Source: Bacillota bacterium (GTDB lineage: Bacteria; Bacillota; Desulfotomaculia; Desulfotomaculales; JASEER01). From it: a stretch of 24,000 nucleotides of DNA. Positions 4,047 through 21,158 of the stretch are shown piece by piece (position 1 is the stretch's first letter; the number at the start of each line of letters is the position of its first letter). Under the pieces are notes generated by a model, which was given only the letters and a program-made list of their open reading frames with translations, did not search any database and was not told where the DNA came from. The stretch is taken from positions 5,661 through 29,660 of the forward strand of contig DAIRSE010000016.1 of assembly GCA_036804525.1 (NCBI GenBank), read 5' to 3'. Both the position numbers and the translations under genes were made by a program.

Positions 4047-6105
4047 TCCACATCACCGTACCCAGTACTTCCAGCTCTACCAGGTTGCTCACCTCGGTAA
4101 GGGCGAGAACGGGAACCGTCACGCCGTGGTGATCAAGGAAACGGCGCAACGGCAGCCGGATCCTGCCGGAACAGAGAATGACCGGAACAACCCCGCGCCT
4201 CCCGGCTTCCTCGACCGCACCGACAATCGCCTTGGCCGCCCGCTGTGCCGCCTGAGGCTCGAGCAGCGGGTAGTTGCCGAAGGAGGTCATCTGAATGGAT
4301 TCGGCAATGGCCTGCTCCAGCCGCGGATGAAGCGTGACGGCCGGCAGCTTCCGGTTTTCGTCGGCATACTGCAGGGAGATTGTGCGCGCCAGGGCCTGGC
4401 GCACCGATTCGGTCAAAAAGTCAATATCGCGGTTTATCCTCGCCCCGTCGGCCAAAACCTCCAGGATGCCTACGAGATCACGGATGGGTACGCCCTCCTT
4501 AAGGAGGTTTTGCAGCACCTTCTGAACCTCGCCCAGGGTCAGCAGGTTGGGCACCAGTTCCTCAACGACGGCCGCGTTTTTCTCCTTGACCACGTTAAGG
4601 AGTTCCTGCAGCTCCTGCCGCCCCAGGAGTTGCCACCCCTGACGCTTAATAAACTCCGACAGGTGGGTGATCAAAACCGTGACGCAGTCGACAACGGTGT
4701 AACCCTGGGCCTCGGCCTGCTCCCTTTCCTTCTCCGTTATCCACCATGCCGGCAGGCCGAAGGTGGGCTCCTTGGTCGGGATACCCCTTATACCGCCGCC
4801 GCTCCCCGGGTTCATCGCCAGGTAGTAGCCCGGCATCAGTTCACCCTGGGCCGCTTCCACGCCACGCAGCTTGAAGACGTAGCTGTTGGGCTTCAGCTGC
4901 AGGTTGTCCCGGATTCGGATGGGCCGGACGTAAATACCCAGATCCTGGGCGCTCTGCCGCCGTACAGCCGCCACTCGCTGCAAAAGGTCCCCTCCCTGTT
5001 CCTCGGAAGCAAGAACGACGAGGTTATAGCCGATCTCCACTTCGAGGGGATCAACCTGAAAGTACTTGAGCACGTTTTCCGGTTCCGGTTTCGGTTCTGC
5101 AGAACGTTTTACCGCCGCGGCCTGCTGCTGGACTCTGGTCTGCTCGGTCTTGACCATGTTGTAGGATATGAGGCCGAGCCCTCCGCCGAGAGAGAGAAAC
5201 AGGATGTTTGGCATACCCGGGAAGAGCCCCATGGCGATCAGGATACCGGAAGCGACCATGAGCACCTTGGGGAAACGGGTCAACTGCTTGGAAATCTCAA
5301 ATCCGAAGCTGGCGTCGGAAGTCGCGCGCGTAACCAGCACGCCCGCGGCCGTGGAGACCAGTACGGCCGGAAGCTGGGCTACAAGGCCGTCGCCGATGGT
5401 CAGAATGGTGTAGGTGCGTAACGCCTCGCCGAACGGCATGTCCATCACGGCGACGCCCATGATAAAGCCGCCGATAATGTTGATAACCGTAATGATCAGG
5501 CCGGCGATCGCGTCACCCTTGACAAACTTGGAAGCACCGTCCATCGCCCCGAAGAAGTCCGCCTCACGTTGGAGCCTGCGCCGCCGTTCGCGGGCCTCTT
5601 CTTCAGTAATCAGGCCGGCATTGAAATCGCTGTCGATGGCCATCTGCTTGCCGGGCATGGCATCGAGGGTAAACCTGGCCCCGACTTCGGCCACACGCCC
5701 CGCGCCGTTGGTGATCACGGCAAACTGGATGACGGTGATAATCAGAAAGACGACAAAACCGACAATGTAACTCCCCCCGACCACCACCTGACCGAAGGCC
5801 TCAATGACGTTGCCGGCCGCGGCCTGCCCCAGGATCAGGCGGGTGGAGGAAATGTTCAGGGCCAGCCTGTACAGCGTCAGTACCAGGAGCAGTGTCGGGA
5901 AAACCGAAAACTGCAGGGGGTCGGTGGTGAACAGCGTTATCAGCAGGACGAGCAGTCCGGCCGTAATGCTGACGACCAACAGCACGTCCAGGGCAAACGG
6001 TGGCAGAGGGATGACGATCAGCAGCACGATGCCGATGATCAGCGCCGCCACCAGATAGTCCAGATTCCGTCTTAACCCTGCCGGATTGAGGAGTGATTCA
6101 GCCAT
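4036..6105 (-). CDS. flhA: flagellar type III export gate protein FlhA
   Basis: FHIPEP-family sequence with an N-terminal polytopic membrane domain and a large C-terminal cytoplasmic domain. I set the start at ATG 6105 (MAESLL), preceded by GAGGTAGCA. The 19 extra ORF-track residues upstream are translated from tandem-repeat spacer DNA. Confidence 0.95.
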   Translation of the reverse strand: MAESLLNPAGLRRNLDYLVAALIIGIVLLIVIPLPPFALDVLLVVSITAGLLVLLITLFTTDPLQFSVFPTLLLVLTLYRLALNISSTRLILGQAAAGNVIEAFGQVVVGGSYIVGFVVFLIITVIQFAVITNGAGRVAEVGARFTLDAMPGKQMAIDSDFNAGLITEEEARERRRRLQREADFFGAMDGASKFVKGDAIAGLIITVINIIGGFIMGVAVMDMPFGEALRTYTILTIGDGLVAQLPAVLVSTAAGVLVTRATSDASFGFEISKQLTRFPKVLMVASGILIAMGLFPGMPNILFLSLGGGLGLISYNMVKTEQTRVQQQAAAVKRSAEPKPEPENVLKYFQVDPLEVEIGYNLVVLASEEQGGDLLQRVAAVRRQSAQDLGIYVRPIRIRDNLQLKPNSYVFKLRGVEAAQGELMPGYYLAMNPGSGGGIRGIPTKEPTFGLPAWWITEKEREQAEAQGYTVVDCVTVLITHLSEFIKRQGWQLLGRQELQELLNVVKEKNAAVVEELVPNLLTLGEVQKVLQNLLKEGVPIRDLVGILEVLADGARINRDIDFLTESVRQALARTISLQYADENRKLPAVTLHPRLEQAIAESIQMTSFGNYPLLEPQAAQRAAKAIVGAVEEAGRRGVVPVILCSGRIRLPLRRFLDHHGVTVPVLALTEVSNLVELEVLGTVMWNED

Positions 6106-6117
6106 TGCTACCTCAAT

Positions 6118-6190
6118 TTCGTCGTACGCCGTTCGTCGTACGGAGTTAAAACCATCGACCATTCCGACTACCGACTACTAAACTACCAAC
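6118..6190. repeat. short tandem repeats in the flhB-flhA spacer (7- and 14-nt periods)
   Basis: ttcgtcgtacg occurs at 6118 and 6132, a 14-nt period. ccgacta ccgacta occupies 6164-6177, followed by degenerate ctaaacta/ccaact. Confidence 0.8.
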
Positions 6191-6191
6191 T

Positions 6192-7277
6192 CTACTGACC
6201 ACCAGATACACTCTGCCGGTGTCTCTTCAGCCTGTAGACAAAGGCCAGGATTTCGGCCACCGCCTGGTAAAGCTGCACGGGAATCTCCTTCCCGACATCC
6301 ACCTTCCAGTACAGGTACCGGGCAACGTCCCTGTTTTCAACAACGGGCACATTGTGTTCCCGGGCTAAATCTTTGATCAGCCTGGCCATCAGATCGGCGC
6401 CTTTGGCCGTCACCCGGGGGGCCGCCATTTGATGTCCTTCGTAGCGCAGCGCTACGGCGAAATGGGTCGGGTTGGTCACCACGACCGTGGCCCGCGGCAC
6501 CTCCTGGCGAATCCTGTTCAGGGCCATCTGCCGCTGTCGCTGTCTGATCCAGCTCTTAAGGTAGGGGTCGCCTTCCGAATGTTTCAGCTCTTCCTTTAAC
6601 TCGGCGCGGGTCATCATCAGGCTGCGGTTATAGGTGACGCGCTGGTAGGCAAAGTCGGCCAGCGCCAGTACAAGGTACCCGACCCCTACCGTAACGGCCA
6701 GTTTCACCAGCAGGTTCGTGACGGTAACAAACCCCGCTGCGGGAGTAGTCGCGGTCAGGGTAAACAGCTGCAACAGGTGTGCCTTCAAGATCAGGTAGGC
6801 CAGAACAAAGACGACAAGCACCTTGGCACAGGCCTTCCCCAGTTCGAACAGGCTCCTGGTGCTGAAAATCCTTTGCAGCCCGCTGATAGGACTGATCCTT
6901 TCGAGTTTCGGCGCCAGACTTCCGGGAGCAAAAAGGAAACCGACCTGAGCCAGGTTGCCGAAAACGGCGACGATCAAGGCGACCGCCAGCACGGGGGCGA
7001 GCAGGACCAGCATGTTGTGCAGCTCCAGCCGGGCCAGGAAAACCAGGCTCTCCTCGTTTACGTTAAAGGTTGGAAAACTACGGAGGTGGAGCGTAAAAAG
7101 CCTGAAGAACTGTTCAATGTACCAGTCGGAACTGGTGGCCATCAGCGTCACCAGCGCCAACAGTACGAAGGCGCCCGTAAGTTCCTGGCTTTTTGCCACC
7201 TGTCCCCTGCGGCGGGCTTCCTGGATCCGCCGCGGCGTTGCCTGTTCAGTTTTGTTCTGTCCGGCGTCGTTAGCCAA
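6192..7277 (-). CDS. flhB: flagellar export switch protein FlhB
   Basis: 361 aa with four TM segments. The conserved autocleavage motif NPTH is present (VVVTNPTHFAVAL). Confidence 0.95.
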   Translation of the reverse strand: MANDAGQNKTEQATPRRIQEARRRGQVAKSQELTGAFVLLALVTLMATSSDWYIEQFFRLFTLHLRSFPTFNVNEESLVFLARLELHNMLVLLAPVLAVALIVAVFGNLAQVGFLFAPGSLAPKLERISPISGLQRIFSTRSLFELGKACAKVLVVFVLAYLILKAHLLQLFTLTATTPAAGFVTVTNLLVKLAVTVGVGYLVLALADFAYQRVTYNRSLMMTRAELKEELKHSEGDPYLKSWIRQRQRQMALNRIRQEVPRATVVVTNPTHFAVALRYEGHQMAAPRVTAKGADLMARLIKDLAREHNVPVVENRDVARYLYWKVDVGKEIPVQLYQAVAEILAFVYRLKRHRQSVSGGQ

Positions 7278-8347: not shown

Positions 8348-8438
8348 GCATCAGGCACTAAGCGCTAGGCTCCAGGATTAGGGGTTAACCCAAGTCATGA
8401 TGCGTAATGCCCCAATCCTAATGCTTAATGCTTAATGC
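8348..8438. repeat. two heptamer-periodic arrays in the fliP-fliQ spacer
   Basis: Plus 8397-8438 reads atgatgc gtaatgc cccaatc ctaatgc ttaatgc ttaatgc. Plus 8348-8382 reads gcatcag gcactaa gcgctag gctccag gattagg. The palindrome GGGTTAACCC (8382-8391) lies between the two arrays. Confidence 0.85.
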
Positions 8439-8442
8439 CGTT

Positions 8443-17651: not shown

Positions 17652-19172
17652 TTATCTCCCCTGGTCAGTAGTCAGCCAGACCTTGATGATTTCCGCTACC
17701 TGGTCCGGTTTCTGCTTAGCCAGTTCGCGAATCGGCGTCGGGTCCTTGCCGGCCGCCGCTTGACCTCCGAGCTGCCCGACCATGACGGGCGTAACCTCCT
17801 GTACCGCAGGCTGTTGCGGAACCGAAGCCTTACGCCCGCGCAGCACCGACATCGCGACAAGCCCGATGATCGCGAGCAGCAGCACCCCGCCGCCGGCAGC
17901 TACATACAGCATCCACTTGTTCTTCTGCGCGGCCGGTTCGGGAGCGGGCCCCAGGTCTTCCTCAGCACCGGGCTCAAAGGCCAGGCTGGATACAACGACC
18001 TGGTCGCCGCGCTGCTCGTCCAATCCTAAAGCGGCGGTAACAACCTGCTGGATCTGCTGCTGGCGGCCCGGCGCCACCGTATCGTCCACCACAACGGCCG
18101 CTGAGATCCGTTTCACCGCCCCCGGAGCCTTAACGGTGGTTTCCTGAACCGTCCCGACTTGATAAGTTTTGCTCGATTCCTCGCGCTCGTACGAGGACCC
18201 GGCCCCCTGGCCGGTATTGTAGGTAGGCACCTGAGAAAGGCTGTTCTCGGTTTCCGGAATCCCGCCGGCTCCGGCCCCGCTGCCCGTTTCGCGCGCGTTG
18301 TGTTCGGTCAGGACCGCGGAATTCTCCGAAGGGATGCTGGAAACCAGTTCCTGGCGATCAAAATCCAGCTCGGCCGTCACCTGGACGACGAACTTTCCGG
18401 CGCCGAGGACCCGTTCGAGCACCGACTGCACCTTCTTCTCGCACTCGCGCTCGAACGACCGCGTAGCCTCATGCCGGGCTAAGGCCGCACCGGTCAATTC
18501 GTCGGCGGCCATGTCGCCGTTCAGGACACGTCCCCGGGCATCGACGACATGGACGTTCTCGCTGCGCAAACCCTCGACACTGCCGGTGGCCAGGGCGACG
18601 ATGCCTTCGACCTGCTGGCGCGAGAGAGAGGCCCCCGGCTTCAGCTTTAAAACTATGGAAGCCTTGGCTTCCGCACCCTCGTCGCTGAAAACGCTCTTCT
18701 CCGGGATCACCAGGTGGACCCTGGCCTGCTCGACCTCGACAAGCTGAACAATCGTACGGCGGAGTTCTTCCTGCAGGGCCCGCTGGTAGTCGACCTTCTG
18801 TTCGAATTCGGTAACGCCGAAGCGGGTCTTGTCAAAAAGCTCGAAACCCGGGCCGTCGACGCCGATGGCGCCCGAAGTAGCAAGCTGGATGCGGGCCTCG
18901 TGCACCTTGCTTTTGGGGACCTCGATCGTGGTTCCCTGATCTTTGAGGATGTACGGGATCTTCATTTGCTTGAGGCTTTCGGTAATCGTGCCCGCTTCCT
19001 TGGGATCGAGCCCCGTAAACAGCGGGGCGTAATTCACAGTCTTCAGCCAGCTCAAAAGGAGATAGACACCCGCCGCGAAGGCGATCAGCAGGAGGGCGAC
19101 CGCCCCCTTCTGCACGGCGGACATGGCCTGCCAGCGATTCAGCAGGTTCCCCTGTACCGGCTGGTCAGCCAC
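17652..19172 (-). CDS. fliF: flagellar MS-ring protein FliF
   Basis: 506 aa with an N-terminal TM helix, YscJ/FliF ring-building domains and a C-terminal TM helix. GTG start lies 8 nt after GGGAGG. Confidence 0.93.
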   Translation of the reverse strand: MADQPVQGNLLNRWQAMSAVQKGAVALLLIAFAAGVYLLLSWLKTVNYAPLFTGLDPKEAGTITESLKQMKIPYILKDQGTTIEVPKSKVHEARIQLATSGAIGVDGPGFELFDKTRFGVTEFEQKVDYQRALQEELRRTIVQLVEVEQARVHLVIPEKSVFSDEGAEAKASIVLKLKPGASLSRQQVEGIVALATGSVEGLRSENVHVVDARGRVLNGDMAADELTGAALARHEATRSFERECEKKVQSVLERVLGAGKFVVQVTAELDFDRQELVSSIPSENSAVLTEHNARETGSGAGAGGIPETENSLSQVPTYNTGQGAGSSYEREESSKTYQVGTVQETTVKAPGAVKRISAAVVVDDTVAPGRQQQIQQVVTAALGLDEQRGDQVVVSSLAFEPGAEEDLGPAPEPAAQKNKWMLYVAAGGGVLLLAIIGLVAMSVLRGRKASVPQQPAVQEVTPVMVGQLGGQAAAGKDPTPIRELAKQKPDQVAEIIKVWLTTDQGR

Positions 19173-19191
19173 CCCTTAAAACCTCCCTGTC

Positions 19192-19226
19192 ATTGGACGT
19201 AGGACATAGGACATAGGACGTAGGAC
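19192..19226. repeat. heptanucleotide tandem array (5 units; coding strand GTCCTAN)
   Basis: Plus strand reads attggac gtaggac ataggac ataggac gtaggac. It lies immediately upstream of the fliF SD. Confidence 0.9.
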
Positions 19227-19378
19227 TTAAGGAAGAACTCAGGAATCAACTTCGGGCCGGGCCCGCTACGCTCACCTGTTTCGGCCCTACCCGCGAAACC
19301 ATCATAAACCGTATCGGTTGTAGACCGGTATTTCGGCTGTTCCGTACCACGTACGACATACGAACGACGGACGACCGT

Positions 19379-19612
19379 TTTTGAGTCAGGAATCGGCGTA
19401 GCCGATCGATTCGGTCCTCTGTTTCCGACGACGGACGACTGACGACGGACGACCGCTTTTGAGTCAGGAATCGGCGTAGCCGATCGATTCGGTCCTCTGT
19501 TTCCGACGACGGACGACTGACGACGGACGACCGTTTTTGAGTCAGGAATCGGCGTAGCCGATCGATTCGGTCCTCTGTTTCCGACGACGGACGACTGACG
19601 ACGGACGACCGC
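19379..19612. repeat. three head-to-tail copies of a 78-bp unit in the fliE-fliF spacer
   Basis: Units occupy 19379-19456, 19457-19534 and 19535-19612. The first and third are identical; the middle one differs only at its last base. On the coding strand each unit is four GTCGTCN heptamers plus a roughly 46-nt core containing the hairpin AUCGGC-UAC-GCCGAU. More degenerate copies continue down to about 19230. Confidence 0.95.
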
Positions 19613-19906
19613 TTAGACAGGCATGCGCGACAGCTCTTGATAAGCCTCGACCAGCTTGTTGCGGACTTCCAGGGAAAGCTGCATCATCAGGTGGGCCTCT
19701 TCAAGGGCGATCATCACCTGGTGCACGTCCTTGACCTCCCCGGAGAGAAAGCCCTGCACAGCCTTGTCGGCCTTGACCTGCGAAGCGTTGAGCTCCTCAA
19801 TCGCTCTGGTCAGGACCTCGCCGAAAGCCGCCCCCTTGGCCGCCCCCTGCTTATTACCGGGGCTTAACGTGGATAGGCTGCCAACCGCTGAGACTTCCTT
19901 AATCAT
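19613..19906 (-). CDS. fliE: flagellar hook-basal body protein FliE
   Basis: 97 aa with FliE-type sequence (VHQVMIALEEAHLMMQLSLEVRNKLVEAYQELSRMPV), positioned after flgC. Confidence 0.88.
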   Translation of the reverse strand: MIKEVSAVGSLSTLSPGNKQGAAKGAAFGEVLTRAIEELNASQVKADKAVQGFLSGEVKDVHQVMIALEEAHLMMQLSLEVRNKLVEAYQELSRMPV

Positions 19907-19925
19907 TCTTACCTACCCCCGTTCC

Positions 19926-19981
19926 CTGCGACCTACGACATACGACGTACGACTTACGACGTATGACGTACAACGTACGAC
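19926..19981. repeat. heptanucleotide tandem array (8 units; coding strand GTCGTAN)
   Basis: Plus strand reads ctgcgac ctacgac atacgac gtacgac ttacgac gtatgac gtacaac gtacgac. The array fills the flgC-fliE spacer. Confidence 0.9.
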
Positions 19982-19984
19982 GAA

Positions 19985-20824: not shown

Positions 20825-20923
20825 TCCCGTTTCGGCGACCGGCTACCTTAACCAACTTGACAGTGGCTTTAGGTCCTTGGCTTTGCGTCCCCATCTTTCG
20901 ATGGGTTTGCCTTTTCGACGGAA
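20825..20923 (-). promoter_or_regulatory. c-di-GMP-I (GEMM-I) riboswitch aptamer in the flgB operon leader
   Basis: The minus-strand RNA carries GGCAAACC, then the hairpin CCCAUC-GAAA-GAUGGG, then GGACGCAAAGCC. These are followed by CCUAAA, AGGUAGC, and CCGA. P1 closes as UUCCGU/ACGGGA. The blocks are colinear with the Vc2 aptamer as I recall it. Confidence 0.85.
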
Positions 20924-21122: not shown

Positions 21123-21158
21123 AAAAAAACAGGGAGGCCTTGCATGGCAAGACCTCCC
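21123..21158 (-). terminator. Rho-independent terminator, minus-strand specific
   Basis: Minus RNA reads GGGAGGUCUUGC-CAU-GCAAGGCCUCCC: a 12-bp stem with one G-U pair. It is followed by UG and then UUUUUUU. On the plus strand the same position is a C-A mismatch and no U-tract follows. Confidence 0.75.

Follow-up and report, generated by a model that had tools for sequence, protein, structure and literature searches.

Introduction

Minisatellites of the mycobacterial interspersed repetitive unit (MIRU) type are mostly intergenic and presumably transcribed as part of polycistronic operons (PMC3635867). At a smaller scale, among the longer simple repeats of many prokaryotes no class is commoner than the heptanucleotide repeats, which have been suggested to originate from polymerase slippage (PMC4679880). 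In the hmw1A gene of Haemophilus influenzae, a heptamer repeat in the 5′ untranslated region (5′-UTR) is transcribed, pairs with a G-rich arm and undergoes RNase III cleavage, and expression is inversely related to the number of repeats (PMC12721329). Here we analysed a stretch of 24,000 nt (the window) from a Bacillota bacterium of the Desulfotomaculales (GenBank assembly GCA_036804525.1, contig DAIRSE010000016.1, positions 5,661 to 29,660), in which a tandem array of 78-nt units stands between the flagellar genes fliE and fliF, within the gene string flgB–fliE–fliF–fliG.

Judged from sequence comparison with close relatives, the array is a genuine, very recent and copy-number-variable tandem duplication in a lineage-specific non-coding spacer. 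It is probably a minisatellite, or variable-number tandem repeat (VNTR), that was generated by slippage and is neutral or mildly modulatory. Our conclusion is that a heptamer microsatellite seeded the 78-bp array, a higher-order repeat of recent origin. A first-pass annotation of this DNA had offered three functions for the array, namely docking sites for a CsrA-type RNA-binding regulator, RNase processing signals that split the flagellar message, and a dispersed element resembling repetitive extragenic palindromes (REP) or miniature inverted-repeat transposable elements (MITE). None of the three is supported by the evidence given below.

Results

Structure of the array

The listing of open reading frames (ORFs), together with Pfam, places a gap of 440 nt (19173–19612, minus strand) between fliE and fliF, in agreement with the roughly 440 nt reported before. 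On the minus strand, fliE (19613–19906; ORF of 97 aa; Pfam PF02049 FliE, E = 2.7e-27) ends in a TAA stop codon at 19615–19613, directly before the array. Beyond the gap, also on the minus strand, fliF (17652–19172) is an ORF of 506 aa with a GTG start, and PF01514/PF08345 are found in its homologues. Its ribosome-binding region occupies 19173–19190 (minus), with GGGAGG at 19187–19182 and the GUG start at 19172.

Tandem Repeats Finder reported a repeat at 19364–19611 with a period of 78, 3.2 copies, 98% matches and a score of 489. A repeat search found the copies 98–100% identical to each other, and a 26-nt core occurred 3 times against 0 in 100 shuffles. The units are arranged head-to-tail, and their length of 78 nt falls in the minisatellite range of about 10–100 bp. 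Unit 1, the first in the operon sense (19535–19612, minus), begins with G-CGGTCGTCC, unit 2 (19457–19534, minus) with A-CGG and unit 3 (19379–19456, minus) with G-CGG. The three differ at this first base only (G, A and G in the operon sense); Tandem Repeats Finder and alignment thereby uphold the description of three 78-bp units identical save one base, and the unit sequence that the first-pass annotation quoted is correct on the operon RNA. Four heptamers of the form GUCGUCN (GUCGUCC GUCGUCA GUCGUCC GUCGUCG) open the unit and, in the order taken from unit 1, are followed by GGAAACAGAGGACCGA, the hairpin AUCGGC-UAC-GCCGAU and UCCUGACUCAAAA; the segment from the heptamers to the hairpin reads GAAACAGAGGACCGA in every unit. 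After unit 3 comes the 15-nt start of a fourth unit (ACGGTCGTCCGTCGT, 19364–19378, minus; 100% over 15 nt), which forms a direct repeat with the unit start at a distance of 78 nt; slippage probably acted on this pair.

The remainder of the spacer contains older relatives of the unit. Degenerate copy D1 (19313–19363, minus) reads GUAUGUC GUACGUG GUACGG, then AACAG-CCGAAAUACCGGUCUACAACCGAU; its local alignment with the unit gave P = 0.016 against shuffles, and it is identical in the two lineages compared below. Degenerate copy D2 (19239–19282, minus; GAAACAGGUGAGCGUAGCGGGCCCGGCCCGAAGUUGAUUCCUGA) aligned locally with the unit core at P = 0.008 against shuffles and has 2 substitutions between the lineages, at 19254 and 19241. 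For the whole unit against 19230–19363 the alignment gave P < 0.002 against shuffles. The earlier claim of at least two degenerate copies in 19230–19378 holds up on the two local alignments. As a whole, the spacer consists of tandem copies, now decayed, of a single module of about 55–60 nt, composed of a heptanucleotide tract, GGAAACAG, a short hairpin of 6–8 bp and GAUUCCUGA, with two old degenerate copies beside fliF and one young copy, triplicated in the window, beside fliE.

Copy number and length variation in close relatives

FliF and FliG of the window match exactly the proteins MFZ5898488.1 and MFZ5898489.1, which are listed as 'MAG: Bacillota bacterium' (MAG, metagenome-assembled genome). 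Among named organisms, Desulforudis sp. Tu-874, DRI-14 and 1088 come closest, with FliF 92–93% identical, and relatives beyond Desulforudis sp. reach only 47–50% in FliF. The decisive comparison is with L013, a MAG contig of GCA_049324175.1 whose FliF is identical to that of the window. Over 16.3 kb the two share 99.8% identity and are separated by 33 single-nucleotide polymorphisms, one 1-nt indel and one 156-nt indel. The latter is exactly two units, in unit register: L013 has one unit and a fliE–fliF gap of 284 nt, whereas the window has three. Units 1 and 2 have no counterpart in L013; unit 3 is the counterpart of its single unit. Recent amplification, which the first-pass annotation had deduced from the near-identity of the units, is confirmed by this difference in copy number at 99.8% identity. 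In L013, the single unit is flanked on both sides by the 17-mer AAACGGTCGTCCGTCGT, in repeats 78 nt apart, and this 17-mer belongs to the heptamer tract.

A sister lineage was represented by four assemblies (L001, L006, L014 and L015, including Tu-874 and DRI-14), of which L001 comes from a complete genome. The gap is 314 nt in 4/4 of them. Their first unit, unit A, corresponds to unit 3 of the window and has 59 nt, with two heptamers instead of four and without the ATCG duplication in the hairpin arm; otherwise it shows 0 substitutions against the unit of the window. A second unit of 60 nt is diverged, the degenerate part matches that of the window, and there is one GUCCUAY heptamer fewer. 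The length differences between the lineages are 14 nt (2 heptamers), 7 nt (1 heptamer) and 4 nt (the ATCG duplication). Among all six sequences, every length difference is a multiple or duplication of a local motif (78, 156, 14, 7 and 4 nt), which points to slipped-strand mispairing or unequal recombination. Moreover, 1/234 bases differ among the three units against 28% third-position divergence between the lineages, and hence the amplification is much younger than the lineage split. A further sister-lineage MAG contig, L007, breaks off within the repeat-rich spacer at 23 nt upstream of fliF, which is consistent with an assembly break caused by repeats.

Outside this group the spacer is short. 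That fliE and fliF are normally adjacent, as had been assumed, is borne out by gaps of 8–27 nt in four other Clostridia/Bacillota loci. In three nearer relatives the gap measures 12, 111 and 156 nt, and these gaps are without similarity to the spacer of the window.

Heptamer microsatellites in the operon

Seven period-7 arrays occur in the window against 0.1 in shuffles, with 0–2 arrays at other periods, and all of them (7/7) lie in intercistronic spacers. Desulforudis-like loci have arrays of this period, as has the 'Candidatus Desulforudis sp.' MAG L009; none was found in L002–L005 or L011. Directly upstream of the fliF ribosome-binding site stands (GUCCUAY) x5 (19191–19229, minus), and the flgC–fliE spacer holds (GUCGUAC) x about 8 (19925–19982, minus); further 7-nt arrays fill stop-to-start spacers at 8416–8440 and 6163–6191. 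The heptamer spacer between flgC and fliE (78 nt) is a hot spot of small variants: of the 34 small differences that separate the window from L013, 3 fall in it. Different spacers have different heptamers, and even at the same spacer the heptamer sequence is not the same in close lineages. In the flgK–flgL spacer (2453–2492 in L006, 2497–2524 in L013), heptamers run from the stop codon onward and are of the TAGGACG type in the sister lineage and of the AGACGTA type in the lineage of the window. Seven-nucleotide microsatellites fill the stop-to-start spacers of this operon, and their sequence, number and orientation change between close relatives.

In some genomes, pairs of these arrays are complementary. 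The flgC–fliE array of the sister lineage, (UGUAGGA)n, is complementary to (GUCCUAC)n before fliF (5333–5379 versus 5951–5982 in L001; the same in L006). The predicted duplex, with fliE and the spacer enclosed between its arms, has −48.9 kcal/mol, a continuous helix of about 20 bp and z = −4.6 to −4.9. Inverted arrays AGAATCC/GGATTCT also occur in the fliH–fliI gap of L009 (6178–6205 versus 6374–6395), with a predicted duplex of −33.5 kcal/mol and z = −6.4. The corresponding long-range pairing is weak in the window (z = −2.3), and the unit's own heptamers have no complementary partner there. Such complementary pairs could make long double-stranded RNA in some genomes; the lead towards RNase processing, which the first-pass annotation had attached to the array, concerns these 7-nt arrays and not the 78-nt units. 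A 25-nt inverted repeat with 84% complementarity (6118–6142 versus 19960–19984) ties the flgC–fliE heptamer array to one like it, located in the same operon 13.8 kb further downstream.

Divergence of the spacer between lineages

Divergence was calculated between the lineage of the window and the sister lineage. The unique part of the gap (19173–19363) differs at 2/184 positions (1.1%), and the 59-nt unit at 0/59. In the 3′ part of fliE (19613–19799) divergence is 4.3% overall, with all 8 changes at third positions (12.9% of those); it switches at about 19800 to 33.6% in the 5′ part of the gene. The flgC–fliE spacer reaches 41.8%. On the other side, fliF shows 10–13% at all positions and about 28% at third positions, and about 11% already at its start. 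The riboswitch aptamer upstream of flgB has 3.3%. No other non-coding stretch in the 16 kb compared is as well conserved as the fliE–fliF spacer; two other spacers there have 42–44%. At the neighbouring third-position rate about 30 substitutions would be expected in 243 nt, and 2 were seen; the alignable spacer of about 250 nt is about 10–25 times less diverged than neighbouring synonymous sites.

Recombination has shaped the fliE–fliF locus, since divergence changes sharply inside fliE at about 19800, and the mosaic pattern across fliE, spacer and fliF suggests recombination breakpoints or strong constraint. The conserved spacer may reflect modules under constraint, or a very recent exchange between the lineages with breakpoints near the gene ends. 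The low divergence would then mark an undescribed non-coding element under constraint or else an exchange that was very recent and limited to the spacer. Within the sister lineage, L015 differs from its closest relatives at 6/314 gap positions and at 0.9% of fliF third positions, which argues against strong constraint.

Signals and structure in the spacer RNA

Searches with Rfam 15 gave no match in the gap at the gathering score; the best match at E ≤ 10 was terC RNA on the antisense strand (20.2 bits versus a gathering score of 39.9). The promoter scan found no sigma-70-type or sigma-28-type promoter in the gap. As a control, the sigma-28 scan recovered a perfect TAAAGTTT-N12-GCCGATAT upstream of the operon (21439–21412, minus strand). 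Terminator-like sites in the gap were marginal and confined to the antisense strand, with no terminator on the sense strand; in the 111-nt and 156-nt gaps of the relatives neither a promoter nor a terminator was found.

Compared with dinucleotide shuffles, neither the whole gap nor the single units fold any better (z from +1.05 to −0.55, the units lying at −0.1 to −0.6), and the 59-nt unit of Tu-874 is the sole unit to reach z = −2.0. The only robust element is a 6-bp hairpin, with pair probability 0.7–0.9 and −6.7 to −8.6 kcal/mol; in the 59-nt unit it has an 8-bp stem and −10.5 kcal/mol. An imperfect hairpin with a longer stem had been drawn in each unit. Its core AUCGGC-UAC-GCCGAU is predicted to form (pair probability 0.7–0.9 per unit), but the AGGA/UCCU extension is not (0.01–0.02). 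The fliF Shine–Dalgarno sequence is predicted to pair with the heptamer UCCU and the conserved upstream UCCUUAAG in both lineages (P unpaired = 0.01); this hairpin is no more stable than shuffles.

GGA motifs, the ground for the proposal of CsrA docking, are not enriched. The sense strand has 8 in the 440 nt, or 1.8 per 100 nt against 2.2 in the operon (P = 0.78 versus shuffles). Most are predicted to be paired (P(unpaired) 0.16–0.44), one is lost in L015, and none of the unit GGAs overlaps a ribosome-binding site. Since GGA is neither enriched nor mostly unpaired, and neither the motif nor the copy number is conserved, the proposal is not supported, and a CsrA-binding leader was rejected on GGA frequency and predicted pairing. 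In the flagellar clusters of L006 and L013, fliW–csrA is not at its usual place after flgL (between flgL and fliT). A search of a literature library found no paper linking Desulforudis with tandem repeats or CsrA.

Operon context

By ORF listing and Pfam, flgB (20774–20382, minus), flgC (20377–19985, minus), fliE, the gap, fliF, fliG and the genes onward form a minus-strand operon. A cyclic di-GMP (c-di-GMP)-I riboswitch aptamer lies upstream of flgB (20831–20921, minus), with 75.8 bits against a gathering score of 35. Such a riboswitch upstream of flgB is known for flagellar operons of Clostridia, and the arrangement ahead of the flagellar operon is common to L006, L009 and L011. In L010, a relative with FliF 50% identical, a c-di-GMP-I-GGC variant riboswitch is located inside the operon instead, at 2463–2556 in the 259-nt flgC–fliE gap (59.5 bits versus a gathering score of 59).

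The sigma-28-type promoter that served as control is accompanied by a strong terminator-like hairpin (21132–21158, minus) about 250 nt downstream, with a 12-bp stem and then a T-run. Both are upstream of the riboswitch, between a divergent flagellin gene and the flgB operon. From promoter to hairpin they would delimit a candidate sigma-28-driven RNA or leader of about 270 nt, which has no Rfam match.

Discussion

Amplification of a module seeded by heptamers

The data can be brought together in a simple course of events. Slipped-strand mispairing or unequal recombination between heptamer-derived direct repeats, such as those that flank the single unit of L013, would have started the amplification, which may later have proceeded between whole units. 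Since the gap yielded neither promoter nor terminator, the array is probably co-transcribed with the flgB–fliE–fliF operon; on the RNA, the untranslated spacer would be longer by 156 nt and carry two more small hairpins, of about −7 to −9 kcal/mol each. The lack of conservation in copy number makes it most likely that the amplification as such is neutral; at most, it would mildly and reversibly adjust how strongly fliF is expressed compared with the rod genes upstream. Some observations weigh against a neutral minisatellite. The low divergence of the unique part of the gap and of the 59-nt unit hints that the modules are perhaps not junk. In addition, the one-copy and the three-copy alleles both come from metagenome assemblies, and assembly could affect the exact copy number.

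Alternative explanations

The doubt about assembly can be carried further, to the claim that the three-copy array is a MAG artefact and that the true genome has one copy like L013. The window does match a MAG, the near-identical contig L013 has one copy and is itself from a MAG, and short reads often fail to span minisatellites (PMC3635867). However, the two unit-to-unit junctions, ...CUCAAAAG-CGGUCGUCCGUCGUCAG and ...CUCAAAAA-CGGUCGUCCGUCGUCAG (that is, ...CUCAAAAA-CGG...CAG and ...CUCAAAAG-CGG...CAG), are distinct and impossible to derive from a one-copy allele, so that reads with at least two adjacent units would have to exist, and the alternating G/A junction base should give long k-mers a unique path. 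Repeat collapse, possible in L013, is the commoner error, and two tandem units are found independently in four sister-lineage assemblies, one of them a complete genome. We therefore regard an artefact as very improbable. Somewhat less remote, though still improbable, is that the unit represents one locus of a dispersed intergenic family in Desulforudis-type genomes, similar to MIRUs, to REPs and bacterial interspersed mosaic elements (BIMEs), or to MITEs. Tandem units of 59–78 nt within an operon, with an internal hairpin and strain-to-strain copy variation, do resemble MIRUs (PMC3635867), and the contig break of L007 upstream of fliF is of the kind that repeats often cause. Yet the 24-kb window and about 130 kb of other loci yielded no second unit, 50-nt core or conserved 136-nt part, and viral contigs, plasmids and phages gave no match; the sole metagenome match to a 21-mer common to both lineages was a chance match inside a coding region. 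A scan of reference genomes with a 24-mer also gave no match, but this 24-mer holds the window-specific 4-nt ATCG duplication and could not match the complete Tu-874 genome NZ_CP187479.1. The array has no terminal inverted repeats and no inverted repeat with an arm in it, and its hairpin is short (stem 6–8 bp, −6.7 to −10.5 kcal/mol); by its sequence structure it appears to be neither a REP nor a MITE. A mobile-element origin was rejected for lack of similarity in plasmids, phages or viral contigs. Translation of the gap, as a read-through extension of FliE or as a small protein (a 37-aa ORF at 19246–19359, the only gap ORF of at least 20 aa), is hardly credible. The fliE-phase frame is open for 141 codons past the TAA (19190–19612) in the window and L013, until a TGA that precedes the fliF start by 17 nt; a unit of 78 nt is a whole number of codons, and each of the few substitutions within the 37-aa ORF is either synonymous or conservative. 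Against this, every frame is closed in the sister lineage, where indels of 14, 4 and 7 nt shift the frame. The unit's open frames have no start codon, no Shine–Dalgarno sequence precedes the 37-aa ORF, and that ORF is without a Pfam match and without a homologue among 1.84 billion representative proteins. A coding function was rejected on the closed fliE-phase frame of the sister lineage and on the absence of a homologue or Pfam match for the 37-aa ORF.

A different view is that the spacer, with its modules and the heptamer tract by the ribosome-binding site, is a cis-regulatory leader of fliF on which a protein or an RNase acts, for example RNase III on heptamer duplexes or a Csp-, S1- or HutP-like protein that reads sites with 7-nt periodicity. 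The number of modules or heptamers would then tune or switch synthesis of the MS-ring, as the heptamer repeat does in hmw1A of H. influenzae. We consider this unlikely. In its favour, the divergence of the spacer is, at 1.1%, the lowest of non-coding sequence in the 16-kb comparison. The predicted pairing of the fliF Shine–Dalgarno sequence in both lineages (P unpaired = 0.01), the complementary heptamer arrays of the sister lineage with their predicted duplex of −48.9 kcal/mol, the similar inverted pair in L009 and the riboswitch that L010 carries inside the operon, between flgC and fliE, agree with it, and the published hmw1A case provides a precedent with a heptamer repeat, a hairpin and RNase III (PMC12721329). 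On the other side, no significant fold z-score was obtained for the whole gap, for the units or for the leader hairpin. In the lineage of the window, the heptamers show weak long-range complementarity (z = −2.3), and the unit heptamers show none; both sequence and orientation of the heptamers differ between lineages at the same spacer. The 6 substitutions in the 314-nt gap of L015, against 0.9% of fliF third positions, indicate that the sequence is not immutable, and the diverged sequences are too few for covariation analysis. A bolder form of this idea, in which the Desulforudis-type fliE–fliF spacer is a previously undescribed modular cis-regulatory leader of fliF and slippage tunes MS-ring synthesis heritably and reversibly, is more doubtful still. 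If it were true, the heptamer tract would mask the fliF ribosome-binding site, an RNase or RNA-binding protein would act on the modules, and the spacer would be a contingency locus for motility in a slow-growing subsurface organism.

As a probable minisatellite inside a flagellar operon, the array could be used as a strain marker for Desulforudis-like populations. It also gives a warning that copy number at the fliE–fliF array is unreliable in short-read MAGs.

Comparison with known systems

Enterobacterial REP and BIME elements are, like the present array, repeated hairpin elements in untranslated spacers inside operons. REP elements, for example the malE–malF REP, can stabilise the upstream mRNA segment. 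They differ in that each is an imperfect palindrome, about 35 nt long and with a stable stem, and that copies are dispersed in the hundreds, whereas the stem here has 6–8 bp and folding is no better than in shuffles. With CsrA-bound leaders such as the hag 5′-UTR of Bacillus subtilis the array shares a flagellar mRNA and GGA motifs in each unit; in contrast to that type, its GGAs are not enriched, are mostly predicted to be paired, stand off the ribosome-binding sites and are not conserved.

The heptamers beneath the array have closer counterparts. Intergenic heptanucleotide repeats of Beggiatoaceae and Cyanobacteria (TAACTGA) likewise consist of 7-nt units that stand between stop and start codons and vary among strains (PMC4679880). 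As with the (ATCTTTC)n repeat in the 5′-UTR of hmw1A, pairing with a G-rich region is predicted here, that of the fliF Shine–Dalgarno sequence; the arrays stand directly upstream of the fliE and fliF ribosome-binding sites and vary by one unit or in sequence. The differences from these families are that the heptamer sequences are other ones and vary by spacer and lineage, that canonical Shine–Dalgarno sequences are present, and that the 78-nt unit is not a simple-sequence repeat but a higher-order repeat atop a heptamer tract.

The nearest likeness is to the MIRU-VNTR loci of Mycobacterium tuberculosis, where tandem units of 50–100 bp lie between operon genes and vary in copy number among close strains (PMC3635867). 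The same traits are seen here in a unit of 59–78 nt between fliE and fliF, with 3 versus 1 copies at 99.8% identity. MIRUs form a dispersed family of about 40 loci, whereas no second locus was found in the window and about 130 kb of other loci; there is also no conserved frame and no sequence relationship, and the organisms belong to another phylum. Supply et al., in 1997, are said to have found that many MIRUs carry small ORFs overlapping the neighbouring genes. None of that kind was found here: the unit's open frames lack a start codon, and in the sister lineage all frames are closed. By analogy, the array appears to behave as a minisatellite of the MIRU type.

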